Under the pieces are notes generated by a model. The model was not told the origin of the DNA. It saw nothing but the letters and a program-made list of their open reading frames with translations, and searched no databases. The translations under genes were made by a program, and so were the position numbers. From Dictyostelium discoideum (lineage: Eukaryota): a stretch of DNA of 7,355 nt. The stretch is taken from the NCBI GenBank assembly GCA_000004695.1, contig CH709171.1, positions 1 through 7,355 of the forward strand, read 5' to 3'. Below, piece after piece: positions 1 through 7,355 of this stretch. Every line of letters begins with the position of its first letter. Position 1 is the first letter of the stretch.

Positions 1-190
1 TACCCAAAAGGGATCGATCCCCCGACCCTCTATCAAAGGTAGTCTCATCAACCATTACACCATTTGATTGCTTTGATGAAAATTTAAAAATGATAGAATA
101 TTTTATCCCCATTTTTTTTTTCTAAAATTAGATCTTTTTTATTAAAAACCTTAAATTTATGTTTAAAGGAAATTTAAATTCACTTTAAAT

Positions 191-212
191 CTACTTTAAA
201 TCTACTTTAAAT
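191..212. repeat. Tandem 11-mer ctactttaaat x2, preceded by a partial cactttaaat unit. A2 carries x3 at 5629-5661.
   Basis: Seen in sequence. Confidence 0.8.
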
Positions 213-258
213 CCTATTTAAAATTAATTTAAAATAAATTTTAAAGGTATTTTTAAAT

Positions 259-329
259 ATCTTAAAAATTATCTTAAAAATTACCTTAAAAATCACCTTT
301 AAAATCACCTTTAAAATCACCTTTAAAAT
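259..329. repeat. Tandem units atcttaaaaatt x2, accttaaaaat, cacctttaaaat x3 (294-329). A2 has x4 of the last unit at 5743-5790.
   Basis: Seen in sequence. TTTAAA/TTAAAA cores recur with an 11-12 bp period. Confidence 0.8.
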
Positions 330-512
330 TGCTTAAAAATTTATTTTAAAGCAAATTTTAAAGGCATTTTTAAATATCTTAAAAATTACCTTAAAAATTA
401 CCTTAAAAATGAATTTTTTAAACGCGGCTTTAAATTCAATTTAAATCCAATTTAAATCAACTTTTCTTTAAATTTGCTTTAAAGGTTCATTTTTCTTTGC
501 TGTGTCGCTGTG

Positions 513-839
513 TACTTGTGTGACCCTTGAACACACAGAAATAATTAATAATAAATAATAAATAACAAATAATATTATATCTCTTATATAATATAATAAA
601 GCTTTCGTTTGTGCACAATTTGGAATAAAACAACAATGAATTAATTTTTATTTTATTTTCTATTTATACTAAAATTAATTTTACTAAAGAAACCATTGGT
701 AAAATTTCCGAGAATAAAGTAAGAATCTTGTATTTGTTAACGTCTTTTCAGTTACAAATTTATTTCTATATTTGTATTTTACCAGGGTTAAAAACTTTAT
801 ATATTAATTTATGTCGCTTAATTGTTCGCGATTATTACA
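513..839 (-). repeat. 3' LTR of the minus-strand element. It equals 5191-5517 with one mismatch (c709 vs t5387). The boundary may be 517 if the LTR begins TGTGTG on plus.
   Basis: Direct repeat of 5191-5517. In element orientation it begins TGTAATAATCG and ends GGGTCACACA(AGTA). The IN stop codon (818-820) lies inside it. Confidence 0.9.
661..668 (-). promoter_or_regulatory. TATAAATA box within the 3' LTR U3 region (minus strand). AATAAA motifs lie just downstream in element orientation.
   Basis: Plus tatttata is the reverse complement of TATAAATA. Position within the LTR is consistent with a U3 promoter. Confidence 0.45.
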
Positions 840-1669
840 CTCACCCCCGCTCTATTTGATTTTGGGAGTACTACAGGGAGTTGTGTTACAGCTTGACCAT
901 GTTGTGGTGTGCTAGTTGATGGTGGTGGACTCGATACTACAATACTTGGATTAACTAATCTGCTGAATGATAATTCATTCATTGATACTTGGGATGGTTG
1001 ATTTATGAATGAAGGTAATTGGTTCAATTTGTTTATTTTGTTGAAATATCTCTTGCAATTTCTTAATGACTGTGTTGTTGACATGTTTGAACCCAATGGT
1101 ACTTGTATTTGTATTGTTTGGTTTGAAAGTATCCTAACAACTTTAAACGGTCCAATCCAACTTGGTCTGAACTTCTTTAATTCTTCTTCTTTTACGGTTT
1201 GATTTTTCAAGAGTACATAATCTCCCGGTGAGATTGAATTCTTTCTTGTTTTTAATCCATCATAATATTGCTTCTGCTTTGTTTGAGATTCTTGAATTTT
1301 TGTTTTTGCAATCTCTAAACTTTTGTTGATTGTTTCTTCCAACTTTCCAACATAATTATCATTGGTTGTTGCTGAATTATTGAATGGATTTAATGTACCA
1401 AGATCACTTGGTATAGTTGCTTCTCTTCCATAAAGCATTGAGAATGGGCTTGCACCTGTTGATGTATGGACTGAGATTCGATATGCGAATAAACATGAAT
1501 CAAGATACAAATCCCACATAGTGTGAACTTCTTGTGTGAATGATTTTAACATAATTACGATGGTCTTATTGAACCTTTCAACTAATCCATCAGTCTGTGG
1601 GTGGTATGGGCTTGTATTTACTTTCTTTACTTTGAATAATTCATTTACACTACTTATAACTTTATTCAA
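818..1669 (-). CDS. pol: Integrase C-terminal part: third DDE residue (HPQTDGLVERFN), GPY/F module (WIGPFKV), S/P/T-rich tail. No chromodomain. The frame is actually open upstream to 1768. The listed start is TTG.
   Basis: Translation contains TSPYHPQTDGLVERFNKT and FRPSWIGPFKVV. The upstream extension reads IISRHGCPKRLLSDCGTSF. The stop codon lies inside the 3' LTR. Confidence 0.85.
   Translation of the reverse strand: MNKVISSVNELFKVKKVNTSPYHPQTDGLVERFNKTIVIMLKSFTQEVHTMWDLYLDSCLFAYRISVHTSTGASPFSMLYGREATIPSDLGTLNPFNNSATTNDNYVGKLEETINKSLEIAKTKIQESQTKQKQYYDGLKTRKNSISPGDYVLLKNQTVKEEELKKFRPSWIGPFKVVRILSNQTIQIQVPLGSNMSTTQSLRNCKRYFNKINKLNQLPSFINQPSQVSMNELSFSRLVNPSIVVSSPPPSTSTPQHGQAVTQLPVVLPKSNRAGVSVIIANN
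840..853 (-). promoter_or_regulatory. Polypurine tract AGAGCGGGGGTGAG immediately 5' of the 3' LTR (element orientation). It is embedded in the IN coding sequence.
   Basis: Plus ctcacccccgctct is the reverse complement of AGAGCGGGGGTGAG. It is followed directly by the LTR start TGTAAT. Confidence 0.75.
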
Positions 1670-2117
1670 GAATGATGTACCACAATCCGATAGTAATCTT
1701 TTTGGACAACCGTGTCTTGATATAATTAAATTTGAAGTAATGTATTGCTGTTGTTTCGGCAGTGCAATCTACGGTTGCTGCTGCTTCAACCCACTTCGTA
1801 ACATAATCTGAAAACACAATTATGTACTTATGACCTGACATTGATGGTACTTTCATTGGTCCAACGAAATCTACTGCAACCAAGTCCCATGGTTTCTCTA
1901 CTATAATGGTTCCCAACTCTGGTGAGAACTTACTGAATGGACTGGTTTTCATCTTTTGACATATATCACAATTGTTGATGTATTCTTTAACATCCATACC
2001 CATATTATTCCAGTAATATCTTGATGCTAACTTTGAGTAGGTCTTTTGATATCCAAGATGTCCGCCAACTAATGAACAGTCGTGGAACTTCTCTAATACT
2101 TCTTTTTGCATTGACAT
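1662..2117 (-). CDS. pol: Integrase N-terminal part: HHCC zinc finger (H-x3-H ... C-x2-C) and first two DDE aspartates. It starts at ATG 2117. It is out of frame with the downstream IN part.
   Basis: Motifs FHDCSLVGGHLGYQ...CDICQ; AVDFVGP; IIVFSDYVTKW. Confidence 0.85.
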   Translation of the reverse strand: MSMQKEVLEKFHDCSLVGGHLGYQKTYSKLASRYYWNNMGMDVKEYINNCDICQKMKTSPFSKFSPELGTIIVEKPWDLVAVDFVGPMKVPSMSGHKYIIVFSDYVTKWVEAAATVDCTAETTAIHYFKFNYIKTRLSKKITIGLWYIILE

Positions 2118-2179
2118 TGGTACAACTATTCAAATGGCTACTATTTGAGGTCTCTTAAAGAATAATGTTGGATTTACTA

Positions 2180-2680
2180 TTAATCTAAGTATTTAAAGAT
2201 TGGGACTAAGTGTTTATCTTTTCTTTGTTCCTCTGCAATCTTTAAGTCTAAGATTGAATCTAATTTGACTGATTCACCCATTGATATAACTGACATTACT
2301 TCTTCTACTGGACAACTACTAAGTGCGTCTGCAAAAGTATTCTCCTTACCACTTCTATATTTAAATGTGATATTGTAACTAGCCAACTTAACATTCCAAT
2401 TGATAAATCTCTTGTTTCTGATCTTCCCAAGATCATTTCTAAGGAATGATACTGCACTGTTATCAGTGACTACTAATGTTTCTTGGGTGCCAATGATATA
2501 ATGAAATTCTTCTAATGCACATACTACGCTTAAACATTCTTTTTCAGAGGCTGAGTAATTCTTTTCAGTGTCTCTGATGGTTCTTGAATAGAATGATATA
2601 ATACCGTGATCTTGACAAAGAGTTGCTCCAACACCGATATCACTTGCATCAGTTTCGAGTTTGAATGGTTTCTGAATCAA
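2180..2680 (-). CDS. pol: RNase H domain (TDASDIGVGATLCQ, SASEKECL, VVTDNSAV). In frame with RT but separated from it by a TAA at 2684-2686.
   Basis: Conserved Ty3/gypsy RNase H motifs. The listed start is TTG. Confidence 0.85.
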   Translation of the reverse strand: MIQKPFKLETDASDIGVGATLCQDHGIISFYSRTIRDTEKNYSASEKECLSVVCALEEFHYIIGTQETLVVTDNSAVSFLRNDLGKIRNKRFINWNVKLASYNITFKYRSGKENTFADALSSCPVEEVMSVISMGESVKLDSILDLKIAEEQRKDKHLVPIFKYLD

Positions 2681-2683
2681 TTG

Positions 2684-3631
2684 TTATGTATCTGGGTACA
2701 CTAAAATGATCTTATTGTTCTTCAACCTTTCGATTATATTGATACAGATTGACTTATAAGCGTCATTCCATTCGAATATGGTGTCTTGTCTTAATAATTG
2801 GTATATTGGTTTGATTTTTGATGCGAAATTATCTACAAATTTCCTGAAGAAATTTAATGTGCCGATCAATCTTTGTAATTCTTTTACATTCTTTGGATCT
2901 AATAACTTCATTAATGGATCTAGTCTATCATAATCTATTTGAACACCATTCGATTCTATGATATGACCTAAGAATTTTACTTCTTCTTGGAAAAATTGAC
3001 ATTTGCTCAATTTGGCTAACAGTTTATTATCTCTCATTTTCTTGAAGATACCTTCTAGATGTGGTGTATGATCCATTACTGATTTTGAGTGAGATAATAT
3101 ATCATCATAAAATGATTGTAAGGTAAGTCTATTCTCCTCTTTGAATATCTTGTGAATGGTCCTTTGGAAGACTGCTGGTGCATTACACAATCCAAATGGC
3201 ATTACATTGAATTCGAATAAACCTTGTGGTACTGAAAAGGCTGTTAAGTATTTATCACCTTCTCTAATTCGTATTTGATAGTATCCACTTATCATGTCTA
3301 ATTTTGAGTATACATGAGATCCTTTAATTTGATTCCATATTTCATTAATATCTGGTATTGGATATCGATCCTTTACAGTGATATTATTTAATTTTGTATA
3401 ATTAATACACATTCTCATACTCCCGTCTGGTTTTGGACGTAATACTACACTTGATGATACTTGACTATTTGATTCTCTTATAATCTTGTACTTTAATAAT
3501 TCTTTAATATGTTCATCTAAGAAGTCTTTTTGTTCATTTGTGAACTTCACTGGATATGCTTGAAATGATGCATCCTTTTGAGTTAACTTGATTTGATGTT
3601 CAACTCCACTAATCGCACCTGGTTCAGTCAA
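2684..3631 (-). CDS. pol: Reverse transcriptase (YPIPDI, LDMISGYYQI, MPFGLCNAP, FYDDIL, KCQFF..FLGHII). The frame is open upstream to 3655, with a stop at 3656-3658. It is -1 relative to gag.
   Basis: RT motifs in the translation. The listed M is a TTG codon. Confidence 0.9.
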   Translation of the reverse strand: MTEPGAISGVEHQIKLTQKDASFQAYPVKFTNEQKDFLDEHIKELLKYKIIRESNSQVSSSVVLRPKPDGSMRMCINYTKLNNITVKDRYPIPDINEIWNQIKGSHVYSKLDMISGYYQIRIREGDKYLTAFSVPQGLFEFNVMPFGLCNAPAVFQRTIHKIFKEENRLTLQSFYDDILSHSKSVMDHTPHLEGIFKKMRDNKLLAKLSKCQFFQEEVKFLGHIIESNGVQIDYDRLDPLMKLLDPKNVKELQRLIGTLNFFRKFVDNFASKIKPIYQLLRQDTIFEWNDAYKSICINIIERLKNNKIILVYPDT

Positions 3632-4365
3632 TGTATTTGTGAATACATCCTGGGACTAACTCTCTTTAAATCTTGCTGGTTTGTTGTAAAAGATACTTGT
3701 TCAGTAATGGTATTGACTTCTTCTTTGCACTGATTTGCAAAGTGACCAAGCTTGCCACATTTATAACATTTAAGTGGTTTCCCTTTTGGTTTGTTTTTAT
3801 ATTGGTGTTTTTTAACGTTTGCATAATTGTTCTGTTCTTGTTTAACATTATAATCAGGGTGTTTACCTGATGGTGGAAATGGTATCCTGGTTGGTCTTAT
3901 AACTTGTTGTTGTCGTTGAATTTGGGGTTGTTGGTCTTGTACGTTATTATTGATTCTATTTTCTTTATCAATAAATTTGTCTGTAAATCCAGCATTGTAA
4001 AATTCTAAGCTATCATACTTGAATTTTGAATTTGCTTTTGTACGAGCTATCATTATAGCCTCATCTAATAATTTTGGTGCACCTTCGTCAATTGACTTTT
4101 TGATTTCTATATCACTGACCCCTCTAATAAATAATTCAATTTGTCTTTCACTGGTTAATGGAGGATTGATTTGAGCATTGAGTGATCCAAATGCTGTGAT
4201 GTACTTCATGAATTTATCAAATTTTTGATCGGTGAGTTTTGATAATTCATCTTCTGGTTTAAAAAATTTCTTCATATCATATCTTTTAATCATTTCTTTT
4301 TTTAAATCATTATAATTTTCTACTATTTTTGATTTTTGAATAAAAGTAGTTAATGCTGAACCCAA
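3628..4365 (-). CDS. gag: Gag, with CCHC zinc knuckle CYKCGKLGHFANQC near the C-terminus. The first in-frame ATG is at 4293. The frame stays open upstream to 4581, reading through poly-A as poly-Lys.
   Basis: CX2CX4HX4C motif. The ORF start at 4365 is TTG. The upstream extension has no ATG. Confidence 0.8.
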   Translation of the reverse strand: MGSALTTFIQKSKIVENYNDLKKEMIKRYDMKKFFKPEDELSKLTDQKFDKFMKYITAFGSLNAQINPPLTSERQIELFIRGVSDIEIKKSIDEGAPKLLDEAIMIARTKANSKFKYDSLEFYNAGFTDKFIDKENRINNNVQDQQPQIQRQQQVIRPTRIPFPPSGKHPDYNVKQEQNNYANVKKHQYKNKPKGKPLKCYKCGKLGHFANQCKEEVNTITEQVSFTTNQQDLKRVSPRMYSQIH

Positions 4366-4501
4366 AAAATATTTAATTATTTTTCTTTTGACTTCATTAT
4401 ATTCTCCATTATTTTCACCAGTGATTTCGATATATTCAAATAGTGTTGAAATATTTAATGACTCTAAGTCATTATCAGCAAAATAAATTTTATTTTTTGC
4501 C

Positions 4502-4557
4502 TTTTTTTTTTTTTTTTTTTTTTCTTTTTGAGAGGTTTTTTTTTTTTTTTTTTTTTT
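4502..4557. repeat. Two 22-nt poly-T tracts on plus (4502-4523 and 4536-4557), i.e. poly-A in the element leader. They lie in frame upstream of gag.
   Basis: Seen in sequence. Confidence 0.9.
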
Positions 4558-4569
4558 CTTGAAAAGTGT

Positions 4570-4680
4570 TTTGAACTTGATTTACTTGAATTAATTTGAT
4601 TTGATTAATTTATTTTAATTTGATATATCTTGATTTGGTTTACTTTGATTTGATTTACCTTGATTTGATTTTATTTTTAT
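4570..4680. repeat. Degenerate tandem repeats of ~11-15 bp (ttgatttgatt(t)a) in the element leader.
   Basis: Seen in sequence. Confidence 0.6.
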
Positions 4681-4785
4681 TTTGTAATGTTTGAAATTTA
4701 AATTAATTTTAATTGAATTTTGAAACTTGTATTATTTGAAATTAAATGGAATTTATTTAAATTATTATTATTTAATTTTAATTTG

Positions 4786-4848
4786 ATTTATTTAATTTAT
4801 TTAATTTATTTAATTTATTTAATTTATTTAATTTATTTGAAAATTTCC
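4786..4848. repeat. Tandem 9-mer (tttaattta) of about 6-7 copies in the element leader.
   Basis: Seen in sequence. Confidence 0.8.
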
Positions 4849-4972
4849 TTTTTTGGGACCAATATTTAAAAATTTTAATTAATTTAATTGAAAAATTGTT
4901 TTTTCAATTTTGAAACGTTTCTTTTTAATTAATTTTAAGGATTTTTAATTTTTTAAAAAATATATTTTTATA

Positions 4973-4983
4973 TTTTTTTTTTT

Positions 4984-5022
<39 letters not shown>

Positions 5023-5050
5023 CCCCAACCGAAACTATTATTTTTTTTTT
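4973..5050. repeat. Homopolymer cluster: T12 (4973-4984), T34 (4989-5022), T10 (5041-5050).
   Basis: Seen in sequence. Confidence 0.9.
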
Positions 5051-5177
5051 CTTATTTATAAACCTCTCCTAATGTGATTGTTGTTTTTATTATTACTATT
5101 ATTATTATTTGTTGACCGATGTCGCCAAATGTAATGAACGTCGTATTCCAATTCCTATGGGATACTCTTTATAATTT

Positions 5178-5193
5178 GTATATACGTATATAC
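5178..5193. repeat. 16-bp perfect palindrome GTATATACGTATATAC at the 5' LTR / internal-region boundary, where a PBS is expected.
   Basis: The reverse complement equals the sequence itself. It overlaps the first 3 nt of LTR2. Confidence 0.85.
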
Positions 5194-5517
5194 TTGTGTG
5201 ACCCTTGAACACACAGAAATAATTAATAATAAATAATAAATAACAAATAATATTATATCTCTTATATAATATAATAAAGCTTTCGTTTGTGCACAATTTG
5301 GAATAAAACAACAATGAATTAATTTTTATTTTATTTTCTATTTATACTAAAATTAATTTTACTAAAGAAACCATTGGTAAAATTTCTGAGAATAAAGTAA
5401 GAATCTTGTATTTGTTAACGTCTTTTCAGTTACAAATTTATTTCTATATTTGTATTTTACCAGGGTTAAAAACTTTATATATTAATTTATGTCGCTTAAT
5501 TGTTCGCGATTATTACA
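5191..5517 (-). repeat. 5' LTR of the minus-strand element.
   Basis: Direct repeat of 513-839 with 326/327 identity. It ends ...gattattaca at 5517 and is followed directly by repeat A2. Confidence 0.9.
5339..5346 (-). promoter_or_regulatory. TATAAATA box in the 5' LTR, the likely element promoter.
   Basis: Same position as 661-668 in the other LTR. Confidence 0.45.
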
Positions 5518-5963
5518 AAATTTAAAAATGATAGAATATTTTATCCCCATTTTTTTGTTCTAAAATTAGATCTTTTTTATTAAAAACCTTAAATTTATGT
5601 TTAAAGGAAATTTAAATTCACTTTAAATCTACTTTAAATCTACTTTAAATCTACTTTAAATCCTATTTAAAATAAAATTAAAATAAATTTTAAAGGTATT
5701 TTTAAATATCTTAAAAATTATCTTAAAAATTACCTTAAAAATCACCTTTAAAATCACCTTTAAAATCACCTTTAAAATCACCTTTAAAATTGCTTAAAAA
5801 TTTATTTTAAAGCAAATTTTAAAGGCATTTTTAAATATCTTAAAATTACCTTAAAAATTACCTTAAAAATGAATTTTTTAAACGCGGCTTTAAATTCAAT
5901 TTAAATCCAATTTAAATCAACTTTGCTTTAAATTTGCTTTAAAGGTGCATTTTTCTTTGCTGT
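5518..5963. repeat. Direct repeat A2 (446 bp), a copy of A1. It starts immediately after the 5' LTR.
   Basis: Aligns with 79-503. It has extra ctactttaaat and cacctttaaaat units and two 1-nt deletions. Confidence 0.85.
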
Positions 5964-6097
5964 ATATAAACCAATGCCAATAAAAAAAGAATATTGCCAT
6001 TTAAAAAGGTTTGTAATTCTTTAGAATAATTTTTTTTATTTTCATTTTTATTCCTAATATAGTTTACAAAAATTCAAAAAAAATTTTAAAAATTTAT

Positions 6098-6141
6098 CCG
6101 TTAAATAACGGCTTCGAAATCCGGACCTCGCTTTTAAAGCG
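6098..6141. other. Cluster of short palindromes (CCGTTAaaTAACGG 6098-6111; CGCTTTtAAAGCG 6129-6141) flanking a B-box-like motif GCTTCGAAATCC.
   Basis: Seen in sequence. The B-box resemblance (pol III consensus GGTTCGANTCC) is approximate: one extra A and G>C. Confidence 0.3.
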
Positions 6142-6187
6142 ATTAAAAAGCTAATTTTTAAGGTACAAAGCGAAGAAAAATGCACCT

Positions 6188-6240
6188 TTAAAGCCAATTT
6201 AAAGCAAATTCAATTTAAATTTGCTTTAAATTGGCTTTAA
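6188..6240. repeat. 23-bp perfect inverted repeat (ttaaagccaatttaaagcaaatt / aatttgctttaaattggctttaa) with a 7-bp spacer. It sits inside a degenerate A-like segment (~6180-6300).
   Basis: Arms 6188-6210 and 6218-6240 are exact reverse complements. Confidence 0.85.
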
Positions 6241-6839
6241 TGATGCTTTTTAAAAAGGTAATTTTAAAGATATTTTTAAGGTCATTTAAAATTTAATTAA
6301 TTTATAATTTAAAAAAGTTATTTTTAATGTAATTTAAAATTACTTAATAATATGCATGCCACACATGTGACAAACCAAGAGATGGTTTATTTATTTGCCA
6401 TTCAGGTACATTAAGAAAACAAGAAGATATTACAAATTTTCACTCCAACAAACCAAATTATGCTGAATTAAATGCTGATATAGAATAAAAAAAAGTATGG
6501 GAAAAAAAAGCAAAAGATATTGGTATCAAAGGTGTGGGCAGAGGGTGAGTCGAACCTTTGTCCATTAATTATTTAAAAACACAACCAGTCATATTACATA
6601 ATATTTTATTAGGTGTCGCACAAAGATGTTTAAATTACATTTTTGATAAATATAAAAATAAAATTGCAAATTTTTTAAATAATTTAAAAAATGCAAAAAT
6701 AATAGTAACAAACCAAAACCATCAATTTCACTATTTGCAAATAAAACAAGGAAGAGAGAATATTATATTACCTTTTAATATCAATTAAGATTCAAATATC
6801 AAATGATAATTTTTTAATTATGGAACAATTAGTAACTAT

Positions 6840-7061
6840 ATGTTTAAATTATATAGTTACTCTTTTGATGAAAATGATTTAAATTCACTTCAAGTATTAA
6901 TTGAATCGTTTAATGCAAAAGGAAATTTAATTACTGTAACAGAAATAATGAATTTCCACATGTTGTTACATTATCCAATCTATATAGAAAATTGGGTGCA
7001 CCAAAATACACTTCAGCTGAAACTTTTGAAGCACAATTATCAAGAATTAAAAATTATTTAA
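6840..7061 (+). CDS. ATG-initiated ORF (73 aa). It may be exon 1 or the N-terminal part of the downstream gene. It overlaps the long frame that starts at 6914.
   Basis: True ATG at 6840. Protein-like N-terminal half (MFKLYSYSFDENDLNSLQVLIESFNAKGNLITVTEIMNFH). Confidence 0.35.
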   Translation: MFKLYSYSFDENDLNSLQVLIESFNAKGNLITVTEIMNFHMLLHYPIYIENWVHQNTLQLKLLKHNYQELKII

Positions 7062-7355
7062 ATAATAATACAAATAATAGGGATGAACAATATGAAAGGG
7101 TTACCAAATTAAACATGGTGAAATTTTTTAATTCAGTAGATAAATTAAAAAGTATTGAACCTGAAAGTACAGCATTAATTATTAGTACCAAAATAAAAAA
7201 TCCAGATAATTTAGATAAAATAAAAATTAAATTAGATTCATTATTTCAAAATTATAAAAATTTAACTTTTCACTCATCAATTAAAAATAATAAAGAAATA
7301 TACAATGCTGGTGATGCAGTTGAAGATGCATCATATAATGAACTTTCAGGTAGGG
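6914..7355 (+). CDS. Partial host protein-coding region, open from 6914 to the window end. No stop is reached. Product unknown.
   Basis: A 147-codon open frame in AT-rich DNA where stops are otherwise dense. Dictyostelid-like codon usage. Translation ...SNLYRKLGAPKYTSAETFEAQLSRIKNYL...EIYNAGDAVEDASYNELSGR. Confidence 0.6.

Follow-up and report, generated by a model that had tools for sequence, protein, structure and literature searches.

The window analysed here, a stretch of 7,355 nucleotides of Dictyostelium discoideum DNA, holds a minus-strand LTR retroelement between two direct repeats, A1 and A2, followed by fragments of further transposons (Table 1). A first-pass annotation had reported the repeats at 79-503 and 5518-5963, and they are real, as a pairwise alignment brings them into register with ~98.6% identity over aligned bases, a similarity far beyond chance even in AT-rich DNA. 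The differences amount to 6 substitutions and three indels (11, 12 and 1 bp), that is 9 events in ~422 columns, and all three indels fall in 11-12-bp tandem units. We could also reproduce the two junctions as described: the first base of A2 directly adjoins the LTR end (5517|5518), while A1 is set off from LTR homology by gtcgctgtg.

Table 1 Features of the 7,355-nucleotide window. X1 and X2 denote two copies of the DNA transposon X described in the text.
Position	Strand	Feature	Basis
1-78	-	tRNA-like Pol III A/B-box module of X1, truncated where the window begins	bipartite pattern, X copies
79-504	+	A1, right subterminal arm of X1, with 11-12-bp tandem motifs	family alignment, termini
505-512	+	TCGCTGTG, imperfect tandem repeat of the final 8 bp of the transposon (TTGCTGTG), then TA at 513-514
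513-839	-	truncated 3' LTR, LTR positions 62-388	full LTRs elsewhere longer
840-852	-	polypurine tract, sense strand GAGCGGGGGTGAG	direct reading; abuts 3' LTR
833-4488	-	degenerate gag-pol	Pfam; tblastn with the 1692-aa relative P0139, P0139 domains
833-2192	-	integrase (IN), frameshifted	Pfam, tblastn
2183-3652	-	RNase H (RNH) and reverse transcriptase (RT)	Pfam, tblastn
3655-4488	-	gag with CCHC	Pfam, tblastn
5114-5127	-	primer-binding site TGGCGACATCGGTC	2 bp past 5' LTR
5130-5517	-	complete 5' LTR, 388 bp, TGTAATGA...TTATTACA	comparison with full copies elsewhere
5518-5964	+	A2, right arm of X2, terminus GCTGTA	LTR-arm junction common to L001, L004 and L005
6068-6163	-	inverted internal X-type fragment: AT spacer, hairpin ccgttaaataacgg, ex-B-like box, inner arm
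6164-6313	+	third X-like element (AAAGCGAAGAAAAATGCACC...), its terminus and arm, in inverted orientation to A2	I1/I2 78-80%, terminus alignment
6360-7355	+	frameshifted ORF remnant, Dictyostelium-only putative transposase, runs off the window	translations

The retroelement matches the Pfam families zf-CCHC, gag, RVT_1, RT_RNaseH and Integrase_H2C2, and more weakly rve_3 and SH3_Tf2-1, whereas a Pfam search of the element returned no chromodomain match for its IN. This gives the Ty3/gypsy order gag-PR-RT-RNH-IN without a chromodomain, except that the protease (PR) kept in relatives is gone here, being among the ~226 aa that tblastn with P0139 found deleted at 3652-3655. Instead of a single uninterrupted gag-pol ORF there are five ORF pieces with frame changes besides this deletion, as expected of a decayed copy, and published D. 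discoideum copies are not full length either. The domain order gag(CCHC)-RT-RNH-IN is shared with DGLT-A, as are a primer-binding site TGGCGACATCG placed 2 bp past the 5' LTR (TT followed by TGGCGACATCGGTC directly after the 388-bp LTR), a polypurine tract abutting the 3' LTR, and insertion ~11-15 bp upstream of Pol III genes with a 4-bp target-site duplication (TSD). A polypurine sequence upstream of the right LTR has been described for DGLT-A (PMC5006619), and the tract of the window is identical in the copies at L001 and L010. Nothing complementary to the primer-binding site was found within the element, as would be seen with self-priming. Unlike DGLT-A as published, the window copy is frameshifted and has lost its protease, its LTR measures 388 bp instead of 265 bp, the tail of its primer-binding site reads GGTCAAC instead of TCTTTC, and its intact relatives are ~5.8 kb long, as is the L001 element, against a consensus of 5054 bp. 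By these sequence features the element is identified as a Ty3/gypsy copy that is DGLT-A-like or belongs to a DGLT-A subfamily, a naming chosen because LTR length (388-400 bp) and element size deviate from the published consensus.

The two LTRs of this copy are not equivalent. The segment 513-839 equals 5191-5517 with 1 mismatch in 327 positions, and this matching length had been taken as the LTR. However, full LTRs are ~388-400 bp long in seven copies from six further loci (a pair each in L001 and L010) and on the right side of the window; they start with TGTAAT(G/A)AAC, as seen in L001, L004, L005, L006 and L010, end with TTATTACA, and at every 5' LTR the internal flank reads GTTGACCGATGTCGCCAAA. 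The right LTR thus extends over its full 388 bp, and the left one lacks its outer 61 bp. We reject, as the earlier annotation had, a composite LTR made of A plus the LTR; a real extension of 61 bp does exist, but it sits at the internal side of the right copy. The same boundary bears on the reported absence of a TSD: the 5 bp outside the two LTRs do differ, but the comparison set the true integration junction (5517|5518) against a junction internal to an LTR. As the left LTR is without its outer 61 bp, there is no integration junction where A1 meets it, and hence no reason to expect a TSD. Judged from these limits, the missing TSD is attributable to a wrongly set LTR boundary and not to the biology of the element.

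The flanking repeats belong to a ~760-bp DNA transposon, here called X, with terminal inverted repeats (TIRs), the ends CACAGC...GCTGTG and 2-bp TSDs; A is its ~430-bp right arm. Three complete copies in L005 have paired termini and the TSDs TT, TT and TA, the length of 2 bp being based on these three copies in an AT-rich genome. Two of them sit ~790 bp apart inside a DGLT-A gag/leader region, each complete with its own termini and TSD and with DGLT-A sequence between them, and the window (4340-4420) provides the uninterrupted empty-site sequence. With inverted termini, paired-end TSDs and empty sites for two insertions, X has the sequence hallmarks by which we class it as a non-autonomous TIR (class II) transposon. 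It resembles MITE-like non-autonomous elements in being short, in its long TIR arms with subterminal 11-12-bp repeats, in its short TSD, in its multiple near-identical copies and in nesting inside other elements; what sets it apart is that a Pol III unit like that of a tRNA gene is present in complete form. X copies cluster in L004 and in L005, in the latter in the same orientation and near DGLT-A. Within the arms, miRNA-like Rfam matches (mir-1781, mir-548) were dismissed as AT-rich hairpins scoring far under the gathering thresholds.

A1 ends with the transposon terminus GCTGTG (499-504), and window positions 1-505, comprising module and arm, are 98.6% identical to the full copy L005_X1, to which A1 is nearer in the family alignment than to A2. 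At two sites, A1 and A2 each have a variant state that is also present in copies elsewhere. On this comparison A1 and A2 are best described as arms of two members of the X family, X1 and X2, and not as a duplication made by the retroelement. The first-pass annotation had considered A to be the unit of a tandem array and predicted an A-A junction; A is instead an arm of a discrete transposon, and the 213 kb of related loci do not contain the predicted junction, the pattern matching there only the boundary between A and the sequence that precedes it.

That preceding sequence is always an A/B-box module. In the Pol III unit of X, a 5' motif is followed by the A and B boxes and, downstream, by a B-like box; in the window the motif tcatcaaagc (79-70) lies upstream of an A box TGGTGTAATGG at 62-52 and a B box GGATCGATCCC at 21-11, the latter having lost 1 nt that other copies retain. 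X copies from 5 sources yielded 7 occurrences of the bipartite A/B pattern and shuffled sequences none, which is significant, whereas a scan of the window for the B box alone gave 5 matches, a number also reached in 5 of 200 shuffles and therefore not significant. ARAGORN found no tRNA in the window or in the X-bearing loci, Rfam gave none for 1-78, and a complete X copy had no Rfam tRNA match at E<=10. The tRNA models thus recognise no cloverleaf in the module, which is tRNA-like only in its promoter boxes and their spacing, and we therefore name it an A/B-box unit only. Motifs and insertion positions would be consistent with binding of the Pol III machinery at the module, and they suggest that the A/B boxes of X may be bound by TFIIIC/TFIIIB in vivo.

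The retroelement integrates beside this module repeatedly. DGLT-A-like insertions adjoin it at four loci, and the same junction between the LTR and the start of A is found in the window and in L001, L004 and L005; in the window and in L001 the junction lies ~14 bp upstream of the module's position-1 equivalent. In L001 both junctions are visible (module|LTR...LTR|arm), and comparison with the locus' own intact site reveals the TSD AAAT, the right copy of which is expected in the window and present at 5518-5521. Near genuine tRNA genes the family behaves alike, as L010 has a canonical copy 11 bp upstream of tRNA-Ala with the 4-bp TSD ATTT and unrelated flanks, and L007 has an insertion ~13 bp upstream of tRNA-Tyr. 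DGLT-A is known to integrate 13-33 bp, mostly 13-18 bp, upstream of tRNA genes, and the window insertion falls in this range, the target being a tRNA-like module and not a called tRNA. The junction 5517|5518 is thereby shown to be a canonical integrase junction. The window LTR shares 87-89% identity with the L010 copy at tRNA-Ala and with the L006 copy, against 79-80% with those embedded in X at L001 and L004; the X-embedded copies are therefore not each other's closest relatives, which points to repeated independent targeting. The idea that A repeats form an insertion hotspot was right in spirit, the reason being that they carry a Pol III A/B-box module ~14 bp upstream of which the element inserts. 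Insertion into a tandem array had been expected to go together with normal TSDs and unrelated flanks at other copies and with A-A junctions elsewhere; TSDs and unrelated or canonical flanks were found (L010, L001), and A-A junctions were not.

Position-specific integration is shared with Ty3 of Saccharomyces cerevisiae, which inserts ~15 bp before the start of the mature tRNA, although a different host-factor contact, Tfc4, has been reported for DGLT-A (PMC6101501). Another parallel is the Dictyostelium DNA transposon DDT-B, in which a tRNA-promoter-like A/B box draws a tRNA-gene-targeting retrotransposon, TRE5-A, which integrates there (PMC9012585). A few hundred bp separate the A/B box from the end of the transposon in X as in DDT-B; the retroelement at DDT-B is of the non-LTR class and inserts at ~46-50 bp, whereas at X the LTR element DGLT-A inserts ~14 bp upstream. 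X has the trait of the DDT-B/DDT group, an A/B box near one end that draws tRNA-targeting retroelements, and is probably related to it, as judged by the published description of the boxes.

Downstream of A2, the first-pass annotation had noted A-like relics at ~6180-6300. A-like sequence does exist there (6164-6313), but it is inverted, being 78-80% complementary to the end of A, and is no direct relic. The adjoining fragment 6068-6163 is 90% identical to L005 9044-9143, inside X1 of L005. The ORF remnant that follows has relatives in L005, L008 and L009, its homologues all being Dictyostelium hypothetical proteins, and it gave no Pfam match. Because the related ORF in L008 and L005 has another family of termini (CACAGGGGCG...) at its flanks, we do not claim it as the transposase of X.

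Taken together, these features make it probable that three ordinary events of transposon nesting are stacked at the locus. X would have inserted as a TIR transposon carrying a tRNA-gene-like Pol III unit; a DGLT-A-like element would then have integrated on the minus strand ~14 bp upstream of the unit in X2, the same upstream position as the family occupies at real tRNA genes, splitting X2 at the module|arm boundary into left arm plus module on one side and right arm (A2) on the other. The third event would concern a second copy, X1, in the same orientation as X2, whose right terminus meets the TA at LTR positions 62-63 of the 3' LTR, where a second GCTGTG is followed by TA+CTTGTG, an X terminus and a TA target in the LTR. 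We favour, as an inference, transposition of X1 into the LTR. As the window starts inside X1, the left terminus of X1, a TA, positions 1-63 of the LTR and the X2 left half would lie outside; the missing 61 bp of LTR and this half of X2 are predicted at least ~255 bp beyond the left edge of the window.

Alternatively, a deletion anchored at the X1 terminus may have removed these parts. X1 would then have lain upstream of X2::DGLT-A, and a transposase-mediated or NHEJ event would have fused its right terminus to the LTR TA, with loss of the intervening DNA, the X2 left half and the outer 61 bp of LTR. The junction falls exactly at a transposon terminus, the 8-bp terminal duplication or filler resembles a repair scar, and the L005 copies show the clustering near DGLT-A that such a history presupposes. 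TCGCTGTG is absent at 12 of 12 other termini and is thus a departure from clean insertions. Against a deletion stand one event more than a simple insertion requires, the TA being an ordinary X target, and the demonstrated clean nesting of X in DGLT-A, so that we regard the deletion as unlikely, if worth keeping in mind. A local duplication of A during or after retroelement insertion, be it as a long 'TSD', a segmental duplication (already a candidate of the earlier annotation) or sister-chromatid transposition via the X2 end, would match the geometry in which the element is flanked by A as after a 425-bp target duplication, and the canonical right junction. Yet A1 and A2 are separated by more events than the LTRs (Fisher p ~0.05 for all events, 0.14 for substitutions alone), share variants with copies elsewhere, and A1 ends exactly at the family terminus next to a truncated LTR; we consider this reading very improbable, and equally so its corollary that 1-78 is the module of X2 itself.

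A chimeric join during assembly is conceivable in a region full of repeats 96-99% identical to each other, but A1 and the LTR are joined in unique sequence and at a biologically sensible point, transposon terminus plus TA, and similar nesting occurs in an independent assembly (L005), which makes an artefact more improbable still. The model favoured earlier, in which the element inserted cleanly between two units of a tandem A array, could draw on the A-like sequence nearby and on the clusters in L004 and L005; it is contradicted by the 0 A-A junctions, the constant presence of the module before A, the separate and complete state of the L005 copies with DGLT-A sequence between, the shortened left LTR and the inverted orientation of the nearby A-like piece, and retains hardly any credibility.

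With nesting as the preferred reading, the apparent anomaly is gone, as neither an LTR integration devoid of TSD nor an exotic mechanism is needed. The new point is a modest one, namely that a DGLT-A-like element repeatedly targets a transposon-borne Pol III box at the distance that it keeps from genuine tRNA genes, so that TRE5-A at DDT-B, the only case published, is joined by a second retroelement class unrelated to the first. If the boxes are bound, transposon-borne Pol III boxes would provide a gene-dense genome with more 'safe' landing sites. It is a doubtful but conceivable extension that X acts as a mobile 'landing pad', spreading a functional A/B-box unit and with it new safe-harbour targets for DGLT-A, as well as for TRE5-A in the manner published at DDT-B, and that the composite X::DGLT-A can be moved by transposase. 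Were this true, a composite with both TIRs intact could be mobilised in this way, and a decayed, protease-less retroelement would have a second route of spread, which would explain near-identical LTRs on a defective copy.

The direct repeats described by the first-pass annotation are real, as the left copy (A1, 79-503) and the right copy (A2, 5518-5963) align in register with six substitutions and three indels (11, 12 and 1 bp), the latter all within 11-12-bp tandem motifs. The LTR boundary set in the same annotation was misplaced, since full LTRs at other loci extend further. Within the window, which is very AT-rich and carries the LTR retroelement on the minus strand, 513-839 matches 5191-5517 with a single mismatch. 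In L001, a D. cf. discoideum locus holding a complete relative, the LTRs are ~392 bp each, start with TGTAATAAACC and finish with GATTATTACA, and GTTGACCGATGTCGCCAAA follows the 5' LTR on its internal side. Every full LTR found in four other loci (L004, L005, L006 and L010) shows this start and adjoining sequence, as do the LTR copies of L007, which are all partial (first 222 positions). Because of these shared features we set the right LTR of the window at 5130-5517 (388 bp, TGTAATGA...TTATTACA); it is followed on the sense strand by TT and then the primer-binding site (PBS) TGGCGACATCGGTC, and a polypurine tract (GAGCGGGGGTGAG) adjoins the left LTR. The left copy (513-839) comprises LTR positions 62-388 only and lacks the outer 61 bp, therefore the boundary between A1 and the LTR is not an integrase junction. 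The proposed absence of a target-site duplication (TSD) was based on flanks compared at this boundary, a comparison which cannot reveal a TSD.

We identify the retroelement as a decayed copy of DGLT-A-like type, with an LTR longer than that of the published DGLT-A consensus. The closest relatives of its reverse-transcriptase ORF are found only in Dictyostelium discoideum, D. cf. discoideum and D. citrinum. Its gag-pol is frameshifted, with frame changes in the integrase (1700-2192), and ~226 aa including the aspartyl protease, equivalent to residues 273-498 of the 1692-aa relative protein P0139, have been lost at a gap at 3652-3655. The two LTRs are only 1/327 bases apart despite the protease loss and integrase frame changes in the same copy. 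Such near-identity on a defective element would reflect either mobilisation in trans or within a composite, or else LTR homogenisation. The leader, from the PBS to gag, is composed of poly(A) runs, seen as T runs on the plus strand, and microsatellites, and the gag ATG, present in the L005 copy, is apparently gone in the window (GCCAT to GCCT, ~4499).

Coordinates of features in the window and in related loci
Feature	Locus	Position	Strand	Source
gag with CCHC knuckle	window	3628-4365	minus	Pfam
RVT_1	window	2684-3631	minus	Pfam
RT_RNaseH	window	2180-2680	minus	Pfam
Integrase zinc-binding and core pieces	window	818-2117	minus	Pfam
Leader (~620 nt)	window	4489-5113		
T runs in leader	window	4502-4557, 4965-5022	plus	
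Microsatellite in leader, e.g. (AATTTATTT)n	window	4750-4838		
Inverted internal X fragment	window	6068-6163		
B-box-like match GGTTCGACTCA	window	6546-6556	minus	
(A/T)TCATCAAA	window	70-79		
(A/T)TCATCAAA	L002	~11474-11488		
(A/T)TCATCAAA	L007	~9432-9444		
(A/T)TCATCAAA	L010	12404-12414		
Second TIR family	L005	~12400-10575	minus	
Second TIR family	L008	10873-11120		

Positions 1-78 of the window (the 'pre' module) recur with A as a unit in L001, three times in L004, which also has one arm-only copy, and three times, at 96-99% identity, in L005. By reading L005 base by base, collecting all termini and aligning the copies, we defined X, a discrete element of 757-760 bp. On its left side X has the terminus CACAGC(A/G)AAGAAAAAACCACC and a ~190-bp arm that is complementary, in inverted orientation, to the end of A. 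Next come a B-box-like sequence beside the hairpin CCGTTATTTAACGG and an AT spacer, followed by the 'pre' module, A itself as a ~430-bp arm, and the right terminus ...GCATTTTTCTTTGCTGTG. In three L005 copies the ends are paired and bordered by 2-bp TSDs (TT, TT and TA). Two of them are inserted within DGLT-A gag/leader, a region which is uninterrupted at window 4340-4420, so that the empty sites of both insertions are known. Paired ends, TSDs and empty sites together show that X is a mobile, non-autonomous TIR transposon; a relationship to DDT-B is a lead.

Judging from these alignments, A1 and 'pre' are the right two-thirds of a separate X copy, X1, cut by the window start, as window 1-505 is 98.6% identical to one of the L005 copies (L005_X1) and closer to it than A1 is to A2. 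Duplication of A at or after retroelement insertion is unlikely, because A1 and A2 each share the variant they show at two polymorphic sites with copies elsewhere, and because they differ by nine events over ~422 columns, against 1/327 for the LTRs (p ~0.05 when all events are counted, 0.14 with substitutions alone). The tandem A-A junction predicted by the first-pass annotation did not occur in the 213 kb of related loci, where the predicted pattern matched only the junction between module and arm. The right end of X1 (...TTGCTGTG TCGCTGTG TA CTTGTG) shows a last GCTGTG followed by TA and CTTGTG, the expected look of an X terminus inserted at a TA, here LTR positions 62-63. Between the X1 terminus and this TA, TCGCTGTG (505-512) repeats the last 8 bp of the transposon imperfectly and in tandem, and these extra 8 bp were not found at any of 12 other X termini. 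The simplest reading is that X1 would be a nested insertion into the 3' LTR, the main alternative being that a terminus-anchored deletion joined X1 to the LTR. With a nested insertion, the left half of X2, the X copy holding A2, would be found just beyond the window, together with a stub of the LTR.

Further downstream, the relics, at 6164-6313, are indeed A-like, but they are inverted and do not form a local A array. They belong to a third X-like element, of which they form the terminus and arm, and adjoin an internal X fragment. Beyond this element lies a frameshifted ORF of a putative transposase that is restricted to Dictyostelium. A second TIR family, whose terminus is CACAGGGGCGAAAA and which has long tandem repeats of AAGTATACTTAATAAG, carries a relative of this Dictyostelium-only ORF (window 6360-7355). 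In L008 the family interrupts an X copy, and in L005 it adjoins a truncated DGLT-A gag. Overall, the locus consists of ordinary nested transposons.

The 'pre' module contains an A box (TGGTGTAATGG) and a B box (in most copies GGATCGAATCC), separated by a tRNA-like distance; the B box of the window copy has a 1-nt deletion. The bipartite pattern occurred seven times, always in X copies (window and four loci), and 0 times in shuffles, and is conserved even where the X arms are only 70-80% identical. The module was not accepted as a tRNA by ARAGORN or Rfam. Elsewhere in the window the best B-box-like match, with one mismatch, falls within the remnant of the transposase-like ORF; no A box was seen at tRNA spacing from it, and the window-wide B-box scan was not above chance.

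The right junction of the window (TTATTACA / AAATTTAAAAATGATAG) falls exactly at the boundary between module and arm of X, which is intact at window 75-92 (gatgAAAATttaaaaatg). This LTR-arm junction recurs in L001, L004 and L005, within 1 nt and in identical orientation. L001 carries both sides (...GACGAAAT / TGTAAT...TTACA / AAATTTTAG), and their comparison with its own intact X site (GACGAAATTTTAG) gives a 4-bp TSD, AAAT. The canonical copy of L010 has full LTRs, unrelated flanks and a 4-bp TSD, ATTT. The X-embedded copies are not one lineage, since the window LTR shares 87-89% identity with its counterparts at tRNA-Ala in L010 and in L006 (no target identified), but only 79-80% with those embedded in X in L001 and L004. 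X has therefore been a repeated target of DGLT-A-like elements.

We also observed (A/T)TCATCAAA between LTR end and gene start in 4/4 DGLT-A-occupied Pol III targets seen (tRNA-Asn, tRNA-Tyr, tRNA-Ala and the X module), and not at the sole unoccupied tRNA gene in these loci (tRNA-Cys, L002 19053), a sample of only five. The motif could be a 5' box conserved among Dictyostelium tRNA genes, or else reflect a preference of the integrase. Beside tRNA-Tyr, L007 9441-12047 holds two partial DGLT-A-like 5' regions (leader and LTR), inverted in a palindromic arrangement.

The insertion point in X lies ~14 bp upstream of the module's position-1 equivalent. The L010 copy lies 11 bp upstream of tRNA-Ala, the L007 copy ~13 bp upstream of tRNA-Tyr, and the published distance for DGLT-A is 13-18 bp in 18/20 copies (PMC6101501); the distance to the X box is that kept from genuine tRNA genes. 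TRE5-A specifically targets the A/B box of DDT-B (PMC9012585), and the small new point here is that a Pol III A/B box borne by a DNA transposon likewise serves DGLT-A as a target.
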